From a virus (Duplodnaviria; Heunggongvirae; Uroviricota; Caudoviricetes), in the IMG/VR virus record IMGVR_UViG_2651869782_000036, positions 1 through 12,726 of that record: a stretch of DNA of 12,726 bases; one strand, written 5' to 3'. Of this stretch, positions 1 to 12,726 are shown piece by piece. Below the pieces are notes generated by a model. That model did not search any database. It was not told the origin of the DNA and worked only from the letters and a program-made list of their open reading frames with translations. A program made the position numbers and the translations under genes. The stretch's first letter is position 1; the number at the start of each line of letters is the position of its first letter.

Positions 1-468
1 CCGTGGCCTTCCGCCACTCCGCCAACAGGCTGGCTGAAATGCAACGGTGCAGCATTTTCTGCTGAAGAATACCCGGAACTGGCAAAGGCTTATCCGACAA
101 ATAAATTGCCTGATTTACGTGGTGAGTTTATTCGTGGCTGGGATGACGGACGTGGTATGGATACGGGGAGGGCAATATTATCAGCTCAGGGCGATGCCAT
201 ACGTAATATCTATGGTGAGTTCAAGACTGTAAACACCGAAAATTATTCAATATGGGAAGTAGCAAGCTCGTTTAAGGGAGCAGTGGTGCCTTTGAGTCCC
301 TCTACAAACAATAGTTATTTCTCCTTAACCAGAAGTATGGTGACAGAAAGAGCAGACGGCGCTGTTTACCCAAAAGTGATAGGCCTTGATGCTTCAAGAA
401 TTGTTCCAACTGCAAACGAAAACCGTCCTCGTAACATTGCGTTTAATTACATCGTAAGGGCAGTATGA
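1..468 (+). CDS. Tail fibre C-terminal variable cassette 1 (5'-truncated by the window edge; presumably fused to the constant fibre N-terminus upstream, i.e. the expressed tip)
   Basis: Frame open from nt 1 (PWPSATPPTGWLKCNGAAF...LPDLRGEFIRGWDDGRG...) to TGA at 466-468. Tail-collar-like motif PDLRGxFxRGWDxGRG and conserved C-terminal RPRNIAFNYIVRAV. Confidence 0.8.
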   Translation, partial: PWPSATPPTGWLKCNGAAFSAEEYPELAKAYPTNKLPDLRGEFIRGWDDGRGMDTGRAILSAQGDAIRNIYGEFKTVNTENYSIWEVASSFKGAVVPLSPSTNNSYFSLTRSMVTERADGAVYPKVIGLDASRIVPTANENRPRNIAFNYIVRAV

Positions 469-487
469 AAACGTTGGTTTGGGGGAA
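462..487. other. Candidate Gin-family crossover site (gix/hix-like 26 bp: AGTATGAAAACG TT GGTTTGGGGGAA), + orientation
   Basis: Marks the exact left edge of the sequence shared by all cassette heads. Right half-site read as TTCCCCCAAACC matches the gix half-site TTCCTGTAAACC as I recall it in 9 of 12 positions; AAAAC/GTTTT dyad around a non-palindromic TT core. Overlaps the stop codon of cassette 1. Confidence 0.6.
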
Positions 488-937
488 GGCTCTGCGTTGC
501 CCGTTGGTGTACCTGTTCCGTGGCCCTCAGCCACACCGCCAGCAGGGTGGCTGAAATGTAACGGTGCAGCATTTTCTTCTAAAATGTACCCAAAACTGGC
601 AAAGGCCTACCCCACCAATAAATTACCAGACTTACGCGGTGAATTTATCCGTGGCTGGGATGATGGGCGCGGGGTGGATGCCGGAAGGGGCATCTTAAGC
701 ATGCAGGGGTGGTTAACAGGAAGTCATTATCATAATATTCGGTCATGGGATGCGTGGGATAACACGGTGTTGGTGCCAAATGACAAAGGAGGGGATAGTC
801 TGTTGTCGACAGATAACGCCGTCCGGCAAGGTGCAATTAACGGTAGATTTACCAGTCAATACAGAACGGAATCCTCAGAGGGGAATGAAACCCGCCCACG
901 CAATATTGCCTTCAATTATATTGTGAGAACCGCATAA
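479..937 (+). CDS. Tail fibre C-terminal variable cassette 2 (silent, promoter-less cassette; the TTG start in the ORF track is probably not used, the frame is open from 458 through the crossover site)
   Basis: 152-aa ORF with the same conserved head (GEGSALPVGVPVPWPSATPPAGWLKCNGAAF...PDLRGEFIRGWDDGRG) and tail (RPRNIAFNYIVRTA) but a different central region; stop TAA at 935-937 overlaps the tfa start. Confidence 0.8.
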   Translation: MGEGSALPVGVPVPWPSATPPAGWLKCNGAAFSSKMYPKLAKAYPTNKLPDLRGEFIRGWDDGRGVDAGRGILSMQGWLTGSHYHNIRSWDAWDNTVLVPNDKGGDSLLSTDNAVRQGAINGRFTSQYRTESSEGNETRPRNIAFNYIVRTA

Positions 938-1548
938 TGAATAACGCGATATTAAATGATGACCTTATTGCCGTACAGGCAGGAAACATCGTCGTTTATA
1001 ACTATGATGGTGAGACACGGGAATATATTTCCGAATCAACTGAATATCTTGCTGTGGGTGTCGGTATTCCGGCAAATTCCTGTTTAGATGCCCCGGGCGC
1101 ACATAAAGCGGGCTATGCTATCCGCCGTTCGGAGAATTTAAGCTCATGGGAGTATGCGCCAGACCATCGTGGTGAAACCGTCTATAGCACTGACACGGGA
1201 AACACCGAAGAAATCACGGCGCTGGGTGACTACCCGAAAAATACAACCACTATCGCCCCGTTAACACCATACGATAAATGGGATGGTGAAAAATGGGTGA
1301 CAGATACTGAGGCACAACATCGTGCCGCAGTAGAAGCGGCAGAAACCAAGCGCCAGTCACTGGCTGATGCGGCAATGGCTTCCATAAGTCTGATTCAGTT
1401 GAAGTTGCAGGCCGGGCGGAAGTTGACGCAGGCAGAAACCACCCGGCTTAATGCCGTGCTGGATTATATAGACGCGCTGAACGCAATGGATATAAACATG
1501 GCACCAGATATCAACTTGCCGGAAATACCACTGGCAGCAGCCAGTTGA
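937..1548 (+). CDS. Tail fibre assembly protein (Tfa; P2 G / Mu U family)
   Basis: 203 aa; the C-terminal region (EAAETKRQSLADAAMASISLIQ...LDYIDALNAMDINMAPDINLPEIP) has the character of the caudoviral tail-fibre-assembly domain; start ATG overlaps the cassette 2 stop (TAATG). Confidence 0.85.
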   Translation: MNNAILNDDLIAVQAGNIVVYNYDGETREYISESTEYLAVGVGIPANSCLDAPGAHKAGYAIRRSENLSSWEYAPDHRGETVYSTDTGNTEEITALGDYPKNTTTIAPLTPYDKWDGEKWVTDTEAQHRAAVEAAETKRQSLADAAMASISLIQLKLQAGRKLTQAETTRLNAVLDYIDALNAMDINMAPDINLPEIPLAAAS

Positions 1549-1554
1549 ATATAA

Positions 1555-2031
1555 CTAAGCCGCCCTCACGATATAGTTAAATGCAATATTGCGGGGGCGG
1601 GTTTCACTACCACCTGTGTTACCAATACTTCCTCGTGAATGAAGCGTTGGTGATGGAATCAAACTCCCTCCTGTATTTGTGGCATCAAGCCCCCTGCCTT
1701 GCGTATATGTTTTTTTGAAAATCGTGGCCAACTCCCATTCATCCTTTGTGTCATATCCATCGTTAGCTACAACAATATGGCGGTGTTTTTCCAACATCCC
1801 GTTTTGAATGCTCAATAAAGCGCGTGCCGCATCAATTCCTCGCCCATCATCCCAGCCACGGATAAATTCACCGCGTAAGTCTGGTAATTTATTGGTGGGG
1901 TAGGCCTTTGCCAGTTTTGGGTACTTTTCAGAAGAAAATGCTGCGCCGTTACATTTCAGCCATCCCGTTGGCGGCGTGGCTGAGGGCCATGGAACGGGCA
2001 CACCAACGGGCAGTGCAGAGCCTTCCCCCAA
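1555..2031 (-). CDS. Tail fibre C-terminal variable cassette 3 (inverted, silent)
   Basis: 158-aa minus-strand ORF with the conserved head and tail (…SETRPRNIAFNYIVRAA) and a unique centre; convergent with tfa. Confidence 0.8.
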   Translation of the reverse strand: MGEGSALPVGVPVPWPSATPPTGWLKCNGAAFSSEKYPKLAKAYPTNKLPDLRGEFIRGWDDGRGIDAARALLSIQNGMLEKHRHIVVANDGYDTKDEWELATIFKKTYTQGRGLDATNTGGSLIPSPTLHSRGSIGNTGGSETRPRNIAFNYIVRAA

Positions 2032-2048
2032 ACCAACGTTTTCATGCT
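2023..2048. other. Candidate Gin-family crossover site (inverted orientation; TTCCCCCAAACC AA CGTTTTCATGCT)
   Basis: Reverse complement differs from the site at 462-487 by one base; overlaps the cassette 4 stop codon and the cassette 3 head. Confidence 0.6.
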
Positions 2049-2470
2049 GCCCTTACGATGTAATTAAACGCAATATTACGAGGACGAATGGTTACATAAT
2101 TAACCCCATCACCTCGTGAAGGCCCTGCAAATGAAAAACGGGAAAAGCCTGGTTGGTTAGAAACAATTTGGTCATAGTTATTGATTGAATGACCAGACCC
2201 AATGTCGAAATTACCTCCGTAATGAGAAAAACTTGTACCATCCTGCCCTGAAAGCAGGGTACGTCCCGCATCAATCCCGCGCCCATCATCCCAGCCACGG
2301 ATAAATTCACCGCGTAAATCCGGTAATTTATTGGTGGGATAAGCCCTTGCCAGTCTGGGATACATTTCAGAAGAAAATGCTGCACCGTTACATTTCAGCC
2401 AGCCCGTTGGTGGTGTTGCTGAGGACCACGGAACGGGCACACCAACGGGCAGTGCAGAGCCTTCCCCCAA
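2042..2470 (-). CDS. Tail fibre C-terminal variable cassette 4 (inverted, silent)
   Basis: 142-aa minus-strand ORF, conserved head and tail (…IRPRNIAFNYIVRAA), Gly/Ser-rich unique centre. Confidence 0.8.
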   Translation of the reverse strand: MGEGSALPVGVPVPWSSATPPTGWLKCNGAAFSSEMYPRLARAYPTNKLPDLRGEFIRGWDDGRGIDAGRTLLSGQDGTSFSHYGGNFDIGSGHSINNYDQIVSNQPGFSRFSFAGPSRGDGVNYVTIRPRNIAFNYIVRAA

Positions 2471-2487
2471 ACCAACGTTTTCATGCT
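2462..2487. other. Candidate Gin-family crossover site (inverted orientation)
   Basis: Same 26-bp sequence as the site at 2023-2048 (TTCCCCCAAACCAACGTTTTCATGCT); overlaps the cassette 5 stop and the cassette 4 head. Confidence 0.6.
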
Positions 2488-2948
2488 GCCCTTACGATGT
2501 AATTAAACGCAATGTTATGGGGGCGTGTTTCAGATGCTGTGCGAACTGAGCGAGAGGCGTCGAATGTCCATACAGAAGCACCATATCCTTCAATGATCTC
2601 AGTTGGTTGTAAGCCTACTGATAATATAGAGTCAGTTTGACTAAATGGTCCTGAATTAAGCGCATCTTTAAAAAGCTGAGTACGCCCAAAAGTGCCAACT
2701 ATATTCTGAATAGCGTCAGACTGTGCAGACAGTAGGTTGCGCCCATTATCAACGCCCCGTCCGTCATCCCAGCCGCGAATAAATTCGCCCCGTAAATCCG
2801 GTAATTTATTGGTGGGGTAGGCCTTTGCCAGATTGGGGTACATTTCAGAAGAAAATGCTGCGCCGTTACATTTCAGCCACCCCGTTGGCAGCGTGGCTGA
2901 GGGCCATGGAACGGGCACGCCAACGGGCAACGCAGAGCCTTCCCCCAA
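2481..2948 (-). CDS. Tail fibre C-terminal variable cassette 5 (inverted, silent; the ORF-track extension to 3005 is probably fortuitous read-through into the invertase promoter region)
   Basis: Conserved head (GEGSALPVGVPVPWPSATLPTGWLKCNGAAF…) and tail (SETRPHNIAFNYIVRAA); the centre resembles cassette 1 (…SAQSDAIQNI…). Confidence 0.75.
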   Translation of the reverse strand: MGEGSALPVGVPVPWPSATLPTGWLKCNGAAFSSEMYPNLAKAYPTNKLPDLRGEFIRGWDDGRGVDNGRNLLSAQSDAIQNIVGTFGRTQLFKDALNSGPFSQTDSILSVGLQPTEIIEGYGASVWTFDASRSVRTASETRPHNIAFNYIVRAA

Positions 2949-2965
2949 ACCAACGTTTTCGTTTT
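2940..2965. other. Candidate Gin-family crossover site adjacent to the invertase gene (TTCCCCCAAACC AA CGTTTTCGTTTT)
   Basis: Same right half-site and core as the other three sites; the left arm differs because it is not preceded by a cassette 3' tail. Lies ~55 bp upstream of the invertase start, as for cix/gix next to cin/gin. Confidence 0.55.
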
Positions 2966-3019
2966 TATCCCTACCTATACCAACTCTGTATTTTTCACGA
3001 AACAAAGAGGATGTTTTTT

Positions 3020-3619
3020 ATGCAAATTGGCTATATTCGTGTGTCAACAAATGACCAGAACACGGATTTACAACGCAATGCACTGAACTGCGCAGGATGT
3101 GAACTGATTTTTGAAGATAAAATCAGCGGAACGAAATCAGCCAGACCGGGATTGAAAAAACTGCTCAGAACGCTATCAGAAGGAGATACGCTGGTTGTCT
3201 GGAAGCTGGACAGACTGGGCAGAAGTATGAAACACCTGATCACGCTTATTGAGGAATTGCGGGAAAAAGGTGTTAATTTCCGTAGTCTGACGGACAGCAT
3301 TGACACATCAACACCCATGGGGCGTTTCTTTTTTCACGTCATGGGGGCTTTAGCCGAAATGGAACGTGAATTAATTGTAGAGCGTACACTGGCCGGGCTG
3401 GCAGCAGCACGCGCACAAGGACGCATTGGCGGACGTCGCCCGAAGTTGACAAAAGAACAACACGAGCAAATAGCGAGGCTGATTAAAAACGGTCATGACA
3501 GGAAACAACTGGCGATCATTTACGACATCGGCATATCGACGATTTATCGTTATCACCCTGCAGGCGATATACAGGCTGAAGAAACAACCAGGCAGACTCA
3601 GGAAAATAAAAACCGCTAA
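3020..3619 (+). CDS. Site-specific DNA invertase, serine recombinase (Gin/Hin/Cin/Pin family)
   Basis: Start MQIGYIRVSTNDQNTDLQRNAL… is the hallmark invertase N-terminus with the catalytic Ser in GYIRVST; C-terminal HTH (GRRPKLTKEQHEQIARLIKNG…ISTIYRY). RBS AAAGAGG 9 nt upstream of ATG 3020. The ORF-track start at 2825 is rejected. Confidence 0.93.
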   Translation: MQIGYIRVSTNDQNTDLQRNALNCAGCELIFEDKISGTKSARPGLKKLLRTLSEGDTLVVWKLDRLGRSMKHLITLIEELREKGVNFRSLTDSIDTSTPMGRFFFHVMGALAEMERELIVERTLAGLAAARAQGRIGGRRPKLTKEQHEQIARLIKNGHDRKQLAIIYDIGISTIYRYHPAGDIQAEETTRQTQENKNR

Positions 3620-3641
3620 TCTGACCATTAGCGGTTTTGCG
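3608..3641. terminator. Bidirectional rho-independent terminator shared by the convergent invertase gene and tail operon
   Basis: Perfect 8-bp stem CCGCTAAT / ATTAGCGG (3613-3620, 3627-3634) with a 6-nt loop, flanked by an A-run on the left and TTTT on the right; the invertase stop codon lies inside the stem. Confidence 0.6.
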
Positions 3642-3645
3642 TTAA

Positions 3646-4134
3646 TCAAAACAGCCCTTTAACGGAGCTGGCCGCGCTGTTAAGGGATGATGTGACCTTA
3701 TCTTTGAAGCCGGACAGCATATCACTGAACGATGAGGATTGCAGGCGCTCCCGCAAATCCTCATCACAGCGTCCAAGAGTCAGTGAAAATTCTATCTTTT
3801 TCGCCTTACCGTAGCGATCAAACTCGGAACGGGTCGTATTCGTTTCAGTCAGTACATACATGCCGTAAATCTGCCCGACACCATCAATCAGAGGCCAGGG
3901 GCGTCCTGTATATGCCTGCGTGGTCAGCAACGAAAGCGACACTTCGCCACCTGTAATTTCAGGATAAAGCACGCCGGAAAGCACGATGCGATCATCACCT
4001 GCGCCGATATACTGCCAGCTTGCTGAACGATTAACGCGTTCATTTTTCACATGCCGCCAGCTTTTGTTTTGCTGTAACTGCTGATGCGGCAATGTGCGCA
4101 GCTCAAAAACAAACATGCCGTAGATCATCATCAT
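3646..4134 (-). CDS. U: Phage tail protein U (P2 gpU family)
   Basis: MMMIYGMFVFELRTLP…SASWQY…GGEVSLSLLTTQAYTGRPWPLIDG… resembles P2 gpU as I recall it; size and position after T fit. Start chosen at the second ATG (better SD spacing; the GAGGAG SD overlaps the T stop); ATG 4140 is the alternative. Confidence 0.85.
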   Translation of the reverse strand: MMMIYGMFVFELRTLPHQQLQQNKSWRHVKNERVNRSASWQYIGAGDDRIVLSGVLYPEITGGEVSLSLLTTQAYTGRPWPLIDGVGQIYGMYVLTETNTTRSEFDRYGKAKKIEFSLTLGRCDEDLRERLQSSSFSDMLSGFKDKVTSSLNSAASSVKGLF

Positions 4135-7534: not shown

Positions 7535-8047
7535 TCAGCCAAGCCCGAGCGCGGAACGGATGCGATCGGGCACAATGTCCTTGCCGTCCTTCCGGTAAAT
7601 GAAGTTCAGCAGGTCAATCTCCCACAACGGGCGATCGTTAACACTCAGCTTGTAGTAGGTGTTTTTAATGGCGTAAGTGTGTGATGTGGCTTCGCCCTGT
7701 TTGGCTTCCCCCATATCAATTTCCGTCACACGTCCGCGCATTTCGACTTCATACAGGTCGCTTTCTGCATCGGTGTAGTATTCACCCGCAAAACGCAGCA
7801 GCGTGCCGTCAATCGTGCCGCCATACTTAAGGAACAGCTCACGAACTGCGCCCCCCATGACAAAGCTCGCATCAAGCGCGGAGTCGTCCAGACCGAGATC
7901 AATACTTACCGCACCCATCATGCCACCACCCCGGTAGCTGTCGGTTTTGCGCGTCAGCTTAGGCAGAGTGACGGACGTCACCTTACCCACTTCGTTTTCA
8001 CCATCCACAAACAGCGTAAAAAAGCGAAGATGTTTTGGTACAGCCAT
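7535..8047 (-). CDS. FII: Tail tube protein (P2 gpFII family)
   Basis: 170 aa; MAVPKHLRFFTLFVDGENEVGKVTSVTLPKLTRKTDSYRGGGMMGAVSIDLGLDD… resembles P2 FII as I recall it (…VTLPKLTRK…YRGAGM…DLGLDD…). Start ATG overlaps the FI stop (TGATG); SD GGGAGG. Confidence 0.88.
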   Translation of the reverse strand: MAVPKHLRFFTLFVDGENEVGKVTSVTLPKLTRKTDSYRGGGMMGAVSIDLGLDDSALDASFVMGGAVRELFLKYGGTIDGTLLRFAGEYYTDAESDLYEVEMRGRVTEIDMGEAKQGEATSHTYAIKNTYYKLSVNDRPLWEIDLLNFIYRKDGKDIVPDRIRSALGLG

Positions 8048-10540: not shown

Positions 10541-10801
10541 ATGTTCCGTTGTCCGCTTTGTGGCGCATCTGCCCGTATCCGCACCAGTCGTTCGGAAAAT
10601 GATTCAAACACCGTACGGAAAAAATATTACCAGTGTAACAACCTGGAATGCGGCATAAGTTTCTCAACACTGGAAGCTTTCCATAAATTCACATCGAAAC
10701 ACGCCCCCGGCGTTCACTCTTCAGAAGGTATCCCGTGGCATGAGTTGCCAGCTTCACACAGGGGAAACAATCAGATGAGTTTGCCTTTATCTCAGAATTA
10801 A
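10541..10801 (+). CDS. ogr: Ogr/Delta-family zinc-finger late transcription activator
   Basis: 86 aa; MFRCPLCG…(22 aa)…CNNLEC gives the C-X2-C-X22-C-X4-C spacing typical of Ogr; N-terminus resembles P2 Ogr (MFHCPLC…). SD TAAGGGAGG 5 nt upstream. Confidence 0.8.
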   Translation: MFRCPLCGASARIRTSRSENDSNTVRKKYYQCNNLECGISFSTLEAFHKFTSKHAPGVHSSEGIPWHELPASHRGNNQMSLPLSQN

Positions 10802-10810
10802 CAGGCAGAA

Positions 10811-10839
10811 TTGCCGGAGTAACAAAAAAGCGATAGATT
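10811..10839 (+). promoter_or_regulatory. Putative sigma70 promoter of the hok-like transcript (-35 TTGCCG, 17-bp spacer, -10 TAGATT)
   Basis: Hexamers are weak matches to consensus (4/6 each), with 17-bp spacing, placed so that a transcript would begin near 10846, at the 5' element that is complementary to the 3' end of the transcript. Sequence-only guess. Confidence 0.3.
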
Positions 10840-10992
10840 ACGCGCGGGTGCCTTTCGGCTGATGGTCGGAGGGAATACCCGAAGGCCGGATGTGGAAAGG
10901 CCCCGGAAAACATCTCTGTTTAACCGAGGCCCTAACATATCTACCTTAAGCAAGTGATAGGTTAGCGCCTCTCCAACAAAGGAGCAAGCGCT

Positions 10993-11133
10993 ATGTCGCA
11001 AAAATCGCTTACGGCCATCACGTTCTGCGTGACGGTAATCCTCATAATCTGGATGCTGCACGGTTCGCTGTGTGAAATACGGATGAGCTTCTGGGGAGCG
11101 GAGTTTGCGGCGTTCTTACAGTGTAAGCAGTAA
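10993..11133 (+). CDS. Hok/Gef-family type I toxin-like small membrane protein (46 aa)
   Basis: MSQKSLTAITFCVTVILIIWMLHGSLCEIRMSFWGAEFAAFLQCKQ: N-terminal hydrophobic helix followed by SLCEIR and E-x-AAF-x-x-C/Y, as in Hok (…[23 protein letters not shown]…). SD AAGGAG 8 nt upstream of the ATG. Below the 60-aa cutoff of the ORF track. Confidence 0.65.
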   Translation: MSQKSLTAITFCVTVILIIWMLHGSLCEIRMSFWGAEFAAFLQCKQ

Positions 11134-11220
11134 GGAAACCGCGACGGGGGAGCAATCCCCCGTCAATCGGTTGCCAGGGTAAGGTCGATAAGGCACCCTA
11201 TCTCACAGACATGAACAACA

Positions 11221-11253
11221 AACCCGCAGCGTAAAAACTGCGGGTTTTCTTTT
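11221..11253 (+). terminator. Rho-independent terminator (downstream of the hok-like gene)
   Basis: Stem CCCGCAG / CTGCGGG with an 8-nt loop, followed by TTTTCTTTTT. Confidence 0.65.
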
Positions 11254-11284
11254 TGGTTCCCTCACTCATGAGGACACCAAAAAC

Positions 11285-11317
11285 AAAGCCCATAGCATAG
11301 AATGCTGTGGGCTTTTT
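11285..11317. terminator. Hairpin with flanking T-runs on both strands (bidirectional terminator candidate)
   Basis: AAAGCCCATAGCA (loop tagaa) TGCTGTGGGCTTT then TTTTT on +; on the minus strand the same hairpin is followed by TTTGTTTTTGG. Confidence 0.5.
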
Positions 11318-11392
11318 GCATTCAAAGATGGACGTTATATGGACACTTAAAAATAAAATCCATTTATTTTCAAATAATTAAACTTCTACTTA

Positions 11393-11413
11393 AAGCGCCC
11401 GCAGGCGCTTTTT
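11393..11413. terminator. GC hairpin plus T-run immediately downstream of serS (terminator candidate, better formed for + strand transcription)
   Basis: AAGCGCC (loop CGCA) GGCGCTT followed by TTT on +; on the serS (minus) side the trailing run is only TTTAAG, so the assignment to serS is uncertain. Confidence 0.45.
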
Positions 11414-11433
11414 AGATTCAGAAAAATTGGGTA

Positions 11434-12726
<1,293 letters not shown>

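Follow-up and report, generated by a model that had tools for sequence, protein, structure and literature searches.

Organization of the locus

The DNA analyzed here, a stretch of 12,726 nucleotides from a member of the Caudoviricetes (IMG/VR record IMGVR_UViG_2651869782_000036) and referred to below as the window, holds in its first part five tip cassettes, a single tail fibre assembly gene, four 26-bp crossover sites, and a serine DNA invertase gene (Table 1). Cassette A comes first, and cassette B and the chaperone gene follow on the same strand; cassettes C, D, and E are next, encoded on the other strand, and the invertase gene comes last. The same gene order is annotated in Escherichia coli P2-like prophages, where the counterparts of the chaperone gene are named tail fiber assembly protein. 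Cassette A is either silent or expressed, depending on the sequence upstream of the window. A scan of genome contigs with the first 47 nt of the window matched one element alone, of the e14/Pin type in Shigella flexneri, and the likeness is confined to this head segment.

Table 1. Positions of the cassettes, sites and genes of the array within the window.
Feature	Position	Strand	Description
Tip cassette A	1-468	+	Head cut by the window edge; stop TGA at 466-468; Collar domain (PF07484)
Crossover site 1, mix-like	462-487	+	AGTATGAAAACG TT GGTTTGGGGGAA; core 474-475
Tip cassette B	473-937	+	154 codons from the codon holding the core; Collar domain
Tail fibre assembly (chaperone, tfa) gene	937-1548	+	PF02413, Caudo_TAP (E = 1.9e-31)
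Tip cassette C	1555-2037	-	160 codons; Collar domain
Quasi-site inside cassette C	1630-1655	-	CATCACCAACGC TT CATTCACGAGGA
Crossover site 2	2023-2048	-	AGCATGAAAACG TT GGTTTGGGGGAA; core 2035-2036
Tip cassette D	2042-2476	-	144 codons; Collar domain
Crossover site 3	2462-2487	-	AGCATGAAAACG TT GGTTTGGGGGAA; core 2474-2475
Tip cassette E	2481-2954	-	157 codons; Collar domain
Crossover site 4, terminal	2940-2965	-	AAAACGAAAACG TT GGTTTGGGGGAA; core 2952-2953
Serine DNA invertase, Hin/Gin/Cin/Pin/Min group	3020-3619	+	199 amino acids
Probable Fis-dependent recombinational enhancer	3038-3109	+	Placed by position and homology

The invertase has the build of a small serine recombinase, with an N-terminal resolvase catalytic domain (Resolvase, PF00239, E = 1.4e-51) and a C-terminal HTH domain (HTH_7, PF02796), and its motif MQIGYIRVSTNDQ contains serine 9. 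It matches the Gin structures 4m6f and 3uj3 (E = 1e-91) and is 99% identical to the invertase of the E2348/69 prophage, 94% to that of an IncY P1-like plasmid, 84% to Pin and 74% to Cin. The 5′ part of its gene probably includes a Fis-bound enhancer, since the putative element is 79% identical to the annotated enhancer of P1 cin (gene nucleotides 19-90), the top value among the 72-nt stretches compared along the gene. That this particular invertase catalyzes the inversions, and does so in dependence on Fis and the enhancer, is what we infer.

Crossover sites and the stop codons within them

An exact 23-mer, GAAAACGTTGGTTTGGGGGAAGG, occurs four times in the window, at 467-489 on the + strand and at 2021-2043, 2460-2482 and 2938-2960 on the - strand, and 200 shuffles gave an expectation of 0 copies by chance. 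The 26-bp sites that these copies mark lie where the original prediction had put them and in the orientations it had given, one + and three -, and its polar, non-palindromic TT/AA core is present in all four; the + strand of site 2, for instance, reads TTCCCCCAAACC AA CGTTTTCATGCT. In the reference consensus for the sites of Hin, Gin, Cin, Pin and Min (the Din family), two imperfectly inverted 12-bp halves surround a 2-bp core (TTC---AAAC- -A -GTTT---GAA). The right halves, whose reverse complement is TTCCCCCAAACC, fit this consensus in full, while the left halves keep from it the inner AAAAC(G) alone. A loose pattern match at 7719 (-), within the tail tube gene, reads GTGTGACGGAAA TT GATATGGGGGAA, lacks the dyad, and was rejected as a site.

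The left halves also bear out the proposal that the stop codon of the preceding cassette forms part of the site. In sites 1 to 3 a TGA at -8 to -6 from the core, belonging to cassette A, cassette D (2042-2044) and cassette E (2481-2483), respectively, closes an open frame of at least 149 codons whose translated tail ends in ...IAFNYIVRA(V/A), whereas the left half of site 4, AAAACGAAAACG, is intergenic and faces the invertase gene. Site 1, preceded by a stop codon, forms a silent joint between cassettes A and B, and recombination there merely reorders silent cassettes. The shared sequence had been said to begin at one exact point, which holds for the four-way identity of the sites, starting at G467, but not for the sites at 462, 2023 and 2462, whose alignment reveals homology reaching 45-65 nt further left, through the conserved cassette tails; only at 2940 is the left flank unrelated to the others. 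Longer inverted repeats accordingly pair 424-705 with 1805-2086 (I1) and 403-685 with 2264-2546 (I2). The expectation that tips would be swapped without a change of linker or frame holds for the frame, which is kept across the core. The residues E-N-V, taken as the start of the linker, are absent from the expressed linker: their codons make up the left half-site, are read in a different frame from the stop that they overlap, and remain attached to the cassette upstream. The four repeats are real invertase crossover sites, located within coding sequence and given polarity by a TT core.

Related loci and the expression site

Eighteen loci with 80 sites were surveyed, at two to six sites per locus. 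Every site has the TT core (80/80), 40 are tail-type sites with TGA or TAA at -8 to -6, and all 17 expression-type sites are in + orientation. In 17 relatives out of 17, the constant tail-fibre region has the expression site at its end; this site reads TTCTTGATTACC TT GGTTTGGGGGAA, with TTCTTAATTACC in one, and the expressed fibre has the junction V-L-D-Y-L/G-L-G-E-G. By analogy, the constant region and expression site belonging to the window would lie upstream of it. The invertase gene is always adjacent to the array, and from strain to strain the cassettes vary widely in order and orientation.

Each cassette of the window is found elsewhere as an expressed tip or fused to the constant region. 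Cassette A (type T02) recurs in loci L001, L004, L012 and L013 and is joined to the constant region in L012; B is fused to it in the E2348/69 assembly CP059840.2 and in strain D72, and its head follows six different left contexts in other strains; C is joined to it in strain 266917_2 (L019). D is the expressed tip in ECA64, N31, EC9682 and the E2348/69 assembly NC_011601.1, and E that in PE15, CH4793, 20AR1039 and HCM-28C-2. For synthetic queries in which cassette C or B was fused to the constant region, single-piece matches of 600 nt were taken as true junctions, two-piece matches being those that span an intervening cassette. With an assumed upstream expression site, the window can be modeled to yield 48 isomers presenting five tips. 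It has more than two sites, in both orientations and delimiting overlapping invertible segments, as do Min-type systems, and we are highly confident that it represents the invertible tip-cassette array of a P2-like prophage tail fibre gene, a multiple-inversion switch of the Min type.

Location of the exchange point and rival explanations

In natural recombinants the exchange maps to the TT core. It does not fall at other points of the conserved heads of about 200 bp, where, by the original prediction, homologous exchange would have put it. Fifteen pairs in which the same cassette stands behind different left contexts are 100% identical from the core to the stop codon and diverge in the left flank from -1 or -8, and for PE15 and D72 the exchange interval narrows to the 7 nt from -1 to +6. 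When CP059840.2 is inverted in silico at two TT cores it becomes NC_011601.1, with 0 mismatches in 9,039 nt. In strain SCU-101 (L007), both reciprocal joints of an inversion between a tail-type site and the quasi-site inside cassette C are preserved, fused exactly at TT, and the quasi-site has no flanking homology. Identity of the core and exchange at the core are features of Din systems. Heads do vary, however: in L012 the head of cassette A, and in L008 that of cassette E, are mosaics that have not traveled with the cassette body, and the heads of B and C differ between strains, so that over evolutionary time some exchange or gene conversion has also taken place inside heads.

Such mosaic heads, present in several strains, could be taken to mean that RecA-dependent homologous recombination does most of the work, acting on the inverted repeats of 200-280 bp in heads and tails, and that the 26-bp motif is merely the conserved start of the collar domain. 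The repeats are indeed long and similar (213-283 nt, 88-90%), and the comparison within E2348/69, which leaves an exchange interval 37 nt wide, would by itself be compatible with an early homologous crossover. Yet the SCU-101 joints formed without flanking homology, the PE15/D72 joint is far more tightly bounded, and Hc-type and tail-type left halves share hardly any homology although junctions fall at -1 in the 15 identical-cassette pairs; with the core kept throughout the survey and a dedicated invertase gene always alongside, we consider predominantly homologous exchange very improbable. Site-specific inversion might instead be confined to the expression site and one or two partners, the stop-codon sites between cassettes, that at 462-487 included, being inactive relics of duplication. 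Their poor consensus match, with the outer TTC missing, speaks for this, but cassettes A, B, D and E each stand, in different strains, behind several tails, behind the constant region and next to the invertase spacer, always at tail-type joints, the SCU-101 event itself used a tail-type site, and tail-type halves that agree fully or nearly so are found among the published p15B mix sites, all of which makes inactivity of these sites extremely hard to credit. A shufflon driven by a tyrosine recombinase was rejected, as the sole recombinase in the locus is the serine invertase and the sites are 26-bp mix-type dyads.

Site-specific inversion at all four sites would then proceed as follows. All four sites lie at the 5′ end of a cassette. 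Their right half, GGTTTGGGGGAA, encodes the beginning of the conserved collar-domain head, and their left half is whatever precedes it, be it the last codons and stop of another cassette or the spacer by the invertase gene; at the expression site it is the stretch with which the constant region closes. The adjacent invertase, presumably with Fis bound to the enhancer in its own gene, would pair two oppositely oriented sites, make cuts staggered by 2 nt at the TT core of each, and rejoin them after a 180-degree rotation, thereby inverting the intervening DNA. The constant region and every head share one frame across the core, so any head brought to the expression site is fused in frame (...V-L-D-Y-L/G-L-G-E-G-S-A-L-P...), and the stop codon in each cassette tail ends translation ahead of the next silent cassette.

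Comparison with known inversion systems

The closest parallel to the site design is the Min multiple-inversion system of plasmid p15B, whose mix sites were reportedly described by Sandmeier et al. in 1990 and 1991, together with its counterpart on P1-like IncY plasmids. The design, down to the stop codon in the outer half-site, is thus already known, as it matches the p15B sites published around 1990. Against the mix sequences listed in Table 3 of PMC3241671, sites 2 and 3 are identical to mixN''O' at 23 of 26 positions, site 4 to mixMI''L' at 24 of 26, and the expression site of the relatives to mixQ''R' at all 26. In both systems the 26-bp sites number more than two and share a TT/AA core, a terminal site adjoins the invertase gene, the cassettes have Collar domains and there is a single chaperone gene, and in both the inter-cassette sites have the same CGTTTT(T/C)ATG.. 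half carrying the stop of the previous cassette; moreover, the L012 prophage and the IncY plasmid L016 contain GGCATAAAAACG, the reverse complement of the outer half of mixMr''N', mixO''P' and mixP''Q'. They differ in that p15B is a P1-like plasmid prophage with six sites and stops that are mostly TAA, whereas the present locus, with four sites and five cassettes in the window and TGA stops, belongs to a chromosomal P2-like prophage with a constant region derived from the P2 H-type fibre.

A near-identical prophage locus, that of enteropathogenic E. coli (EPEC) E2348/69, was already shown to isomerise in 2014. It is 99.45% identical over window positions 471-2482 and essentially the same locus, except that it is without cassettes A and E. 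The study described a shufflon-like arrangement of three sites and four isomers, the latter coexisting in cultures as validated by PCR, and it reported homologous inverted repeats, apparently leaving the 26-bp sites and their core undefined (Goldberg et al., 2014, PMC4272514). A gin-type tail-fibre shufflon has also been studied in an Enterobacter phage with the help of a delta-gin mutant (PMC13418256). The Cin/cix, Gin/gix and Pin/pix systems of P1, Mu and e14 share the invertase family, the 26-bp design, the site at the boundary between constant and variable parts of a tail-fibre gene, and probably also the enhancer near the 5′ end of the gene for the invertase, and the outer half of P1 cixL (CAATCCTAAACC TT GGTTTAAGAGAA) contains the stop codon of cin itself; they have, in contrast, just one invertible segment, with two sites, and two tips that each come with a chaperone gene of their own, and the gix core of Mu is GA. 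The R64 shufflon (Rci/sfx) follows the same logic, a single protein receiving alternative C-terminal segments through several sites in inverse orientation, but is an analogy only, Rci being a tyrosine recombinase that acts on 19-bp sfx sites in a pilus gene.

For strains with such arrays, the practical value of these observations lies in annotation. Genome assemblies freeze one arbitrary isomer, in which silent cassettes are annotated as "phage tail protein" or as pseudogenes, and a host range predicted from the annotated fibre is therefore one of several possibilities.

Orientation of the chaperone gene

The chaperone gene, present in a single copy, shares an invertible segment with cassettes B and C, and being locked between the two it is antisense to the fibre gene in half of the 48 modeled isomers, among them every one that expresses tip C. 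A promoter scan of 850-3700 found none for this gene (one promoter-like match against 4.5 expected). The switch might conceivably turn the assembly of fibres on and off as well, or else tip C, and perhaps other tips, might fold without this chaperone, a suggestion that we think unlikely; were it true, the switch would do more than choose the tip. Gating of a chaperone by inversion has, to our knowledge, not been described for Min-type systems. The antisense orientation in half of the modeled isomers is left unexplained by a simple inversion model, and isomers with the chaperone gene antisense are present in the real assemblies L018 and L019.

Organization of the tip array

This part of a P2-like prophage encodes its array of tail-fibre tips (see table), with a phage tail collar domain in the conserved heads of all five tips. 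On its 3′ side, minus-strand tail genes of the P2 type precede gpD, ogr and the host gene serS, and the prophage right end and attachment site probably lie within 10802-11433. Matches to parts of the region occur in 2,862 of 5,426 complete E. coli genomes and also in 270 plasmids. Most of these plasmids are non-mobilizable and from E. coli; the ones inspected are P1-like (IncY) and about 96 kb long.

Features of the array and its surroundings (window coordinates unless marked L007, the SCU-101 locus; half-sites flank the TT core)
Feature	Position	Strand	Sequence or remark
Cassette A	1-468	+	head truncated by window edge
Site 1	462-487	+	AGTATGAAAACG TT GGTTTGGGGGAA
Cassette B	473-937	+	
Tail fibre assembly (chaperone) gene	937-1548	+	
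Cassette C	1555-2037	-	
Quasi-site in cassette C	1630-1655	-	CATCACCAACGC TT CATTCACGAGGA
Site 2	2023-2048	-	AGCATGAAAACG TT GGTTTGGGGGAA
Cassette D	2042-2476	-	
Site 3	2462-2487	-	AGCATGAAAACG TT GGTTTGGGGGAA
Cassette E	2481-2954	-	
Site 4	2940-2965	-	AAAACGAAAACG TT GGTTTGGGGGAA
Serine invertase	3020-3619	+	199 aa
ogr/delta zinc-finger gene	10541-10801		
Host gene serS	11434-12726		strand opposite to ogr/delta gene, ~630 nt beyond
SCU-101 joint	L007 2494-2519 and about 3650-3685 (both joints)		CATCACCAACGC TT GGTTTGGGGGAA
SCU-101 joint	L007 (see row above)		AGCATGAAAACG TT CATTCACGAGGA

The window contains exactly four copies of the 23-mer GAAAACGTTGGTTTGGGGGAAGG, at 467-489 (+), 2021-2043 (-), 2460-2482 (-) and 2938-2960 (-), with no copies expected in shuffled sequence (200 shuffles), and these copies bear out both the coordinates and the orientations of the original prediction (462 +; 2023, 2462 and 2940 -). 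Its placement of the upstream cassette's stop codon within the left half-site at three sites is likewise correct, a TGA at -8 to -6 from the core of sites 1-3 terminating an open reading frame that spans at least 149 codons and has the tail ...IAFNYIVRA(V/A). That the shared sequence begins exactly at G467 holds across all four sites and fails among the three inter-cassette sites (1-3), where homology extends 45-65 nt further left through the conserved cassette tails.

Exchange at the TT core

Natural recombinants in public genomes provide the mapping of junctions proposed with the prediction, and they place the exchange at the TT core, which is present in 80 of 80 sites (18 loci). One cassette body occurs behind differing left contexts, be it the constant region, the tail of another cassette or the invertase spacer; among 145 same-cassette pairs with different left contexts, 15 show 100% identity over the 432-480 nt between core and stop codon and differ in the left flank from -1 or -8 onward. 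Since cassette B has the variant right half GGTTTAGGAGAA in PE15 and D72 alike, whichever of the two contexts it is in, the joint there is confined to -1 to +6. Two E2348/69 assemblies are different isomers, CP059840.2 reading constant region, B, chaperone gene, then C and D inverted, and NC_011601.1 constant region, D, C, then chaperone gene and B inverted; when CP059840.2 is inverted in silico between two TT cores it reproduces NC_011601.1 without a single mismatch in 9,039 nt, as against 1,206 differing positions without the inversion, the first 36 nt inside each head.

E. coli SCU-101 is a natural case of quasi-site recombination at the TT core. An inversion between the quasi-site inside cassette C and the head site of cassette B has left its two reciprocal joints in this strain, and because the parents share no flanking homology and the bases on both sides of TT are unlike, the exchange maps to the dinucleotide itself. 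The C-B fusion tip that arose by this reciprocal inversion measures 285 codons from core to stop.

Expression site and reading frame

In 17 related loci the fibre gene's constant portion stops at an expression site, + oriented in all 17, of sequence TTCTTGATTACC TT GGTTTGGGGGAA (variant TTCTTAATTACC in one), from which the expressed junction is V-L-D-Y-L|G-L-G-E-G. The E-N-V proposed as the start of the linker opening each head is not part of it: these codons belong to the left half-site, overlap the preceding cassette's stop codon in another frame and are not carried along in the exchange; the sole shared bases are the final two of the GTT codon, which form the core. Site 1, placed after a stop codon, is a silent joint between two cassettes and would be in direct orientation relative to a putative expression site upstream of the window. 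Apart from the E-N-V linker and the role of the site at 462, the reading of these as crossover sites within coding sequence that swap tips in frame is supported.

In the proposed mechanism, the invertase would bring together two oppositely oriented sites and cleave at the TT core, so inverting the intervening DNA; any head moved to the expression site would yield an in-frame fusion, and the cassette-tail stop codon would halt translation ahead of the next silent cassette.

Relation to known invertible systems

The system is already known: it belongs to the Min/Cin/Gin/Pin invertase family and represents the multiple-site (Min) form. Among the p15B mix sites (PMC3241671, Table 3), mixQ''R' (TTCCCCCAAACC AA GGTAATCAAGAA) is exactly reverse-complementary to the relatives' expression site, window sites 2 and 3 (+ strand TTCCCCCAAACC AA CGTTTTCATGCT) are 23/26 identical to mixN''O' and mixMr''N', and site 4 agrees with mixMI''L' at 24 of 26 positions. 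The outer half-site common to mixMr''N', mixO''P' and mixP''Q', CGTTTTTATGCC (PMC3241671), has as its reverse complement GGCATAAAAACG, which is present in related prophage L012 and IncY plasmid L016, where its TAA closes a cassette with the tail ...IAFNYIVRAA; the stop-codon-in-half-site design is therefore the published Min design. In two-site P1, the outer half of cixL contains the cin stop codon.

Goldberg et al. (PMC4272514) describe four coexisting, PCR-validated isomers and three inverted repeats in a P2-like E2348/69 prophage, almost certainly the same locus as the window's. A gin-type tail-fibre shufflon with three tips, in an Enterobacter phage, has been studied using locked-variant strains as well as a delta-gin mutant (PMC13418256). 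Window 1-47 (cassette A head) is identical to part of a tip cassette of an e14/Pin-type element (L015 5873-5919, Shigella flexneri CP182557.1) that carries the published pixL and pixR sites, so head modules are common to Pin-type and Min-type systems.

With its Resolvase and HTH_7 domains, the invertase matches crystal structures of Gin (E=1e-91); it is 99% identical to the invertase of an E2348/69 prophage, 94% to that of a P1-like IncY plasmid, 84% to Pin and 74% to Cin. A putative enhancer within its gene is assigned by position and 79% identity to the annotated P1 cin enhancer.

Head mosaicism and cassette turnover

Heads are not always faithful to their cassettes: A in L012 and E in L008 bear heads of another type, the heads of B and C differ among strains, and in ECA64 those of B and C match exactly across at least their leading 75 nt. 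Head haplotypes (first 200 nt past each core; window 476-680 and equivalents) are mosaic among cassettes and strains, a sign that over evolutionary time the 200-bp heads have undergone some homologous exchange or gene conversion, beside site-specific inversion.

Loci with fewer cassettes (L002, L011 and L010, compared with PE15, L003) have clean site joints, and the D72 locus holds only the constant region, B, the chaperone gene and an inverted C. The smaller D72 and E2348/69 arrays look like deletion products between directly oriented sites, and the shuffling enzyme may itself reduce cassette number. E. coli PE15 carries two cassette E copies, at L003 2078 (+) and 5035 (-), with 100% identity across 471 nt. 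One is joined to the constant region; the other lies inverted beside the invertase gene. Inversion by itself cannot duplicate a cassette.

The chaperone gene

The chaperone gene is present as a sole copy within the invertible segment between B and C, and a scan of 850-3700 found no promoter for it (1 promoter-like match against 4.5 expected). An inversion-only model, with the expression site assumed directly upstream of cassette A, gives 48 isomers and five alternative tips. In half of these isomers, including all those that express tip C, the chaperone gene runs antisense to the fibre gene. Two assemblies, E2348/69 NC_011601.1 and strain 266917_2 (L018 and L019), have the gene in this antisense arrangement.
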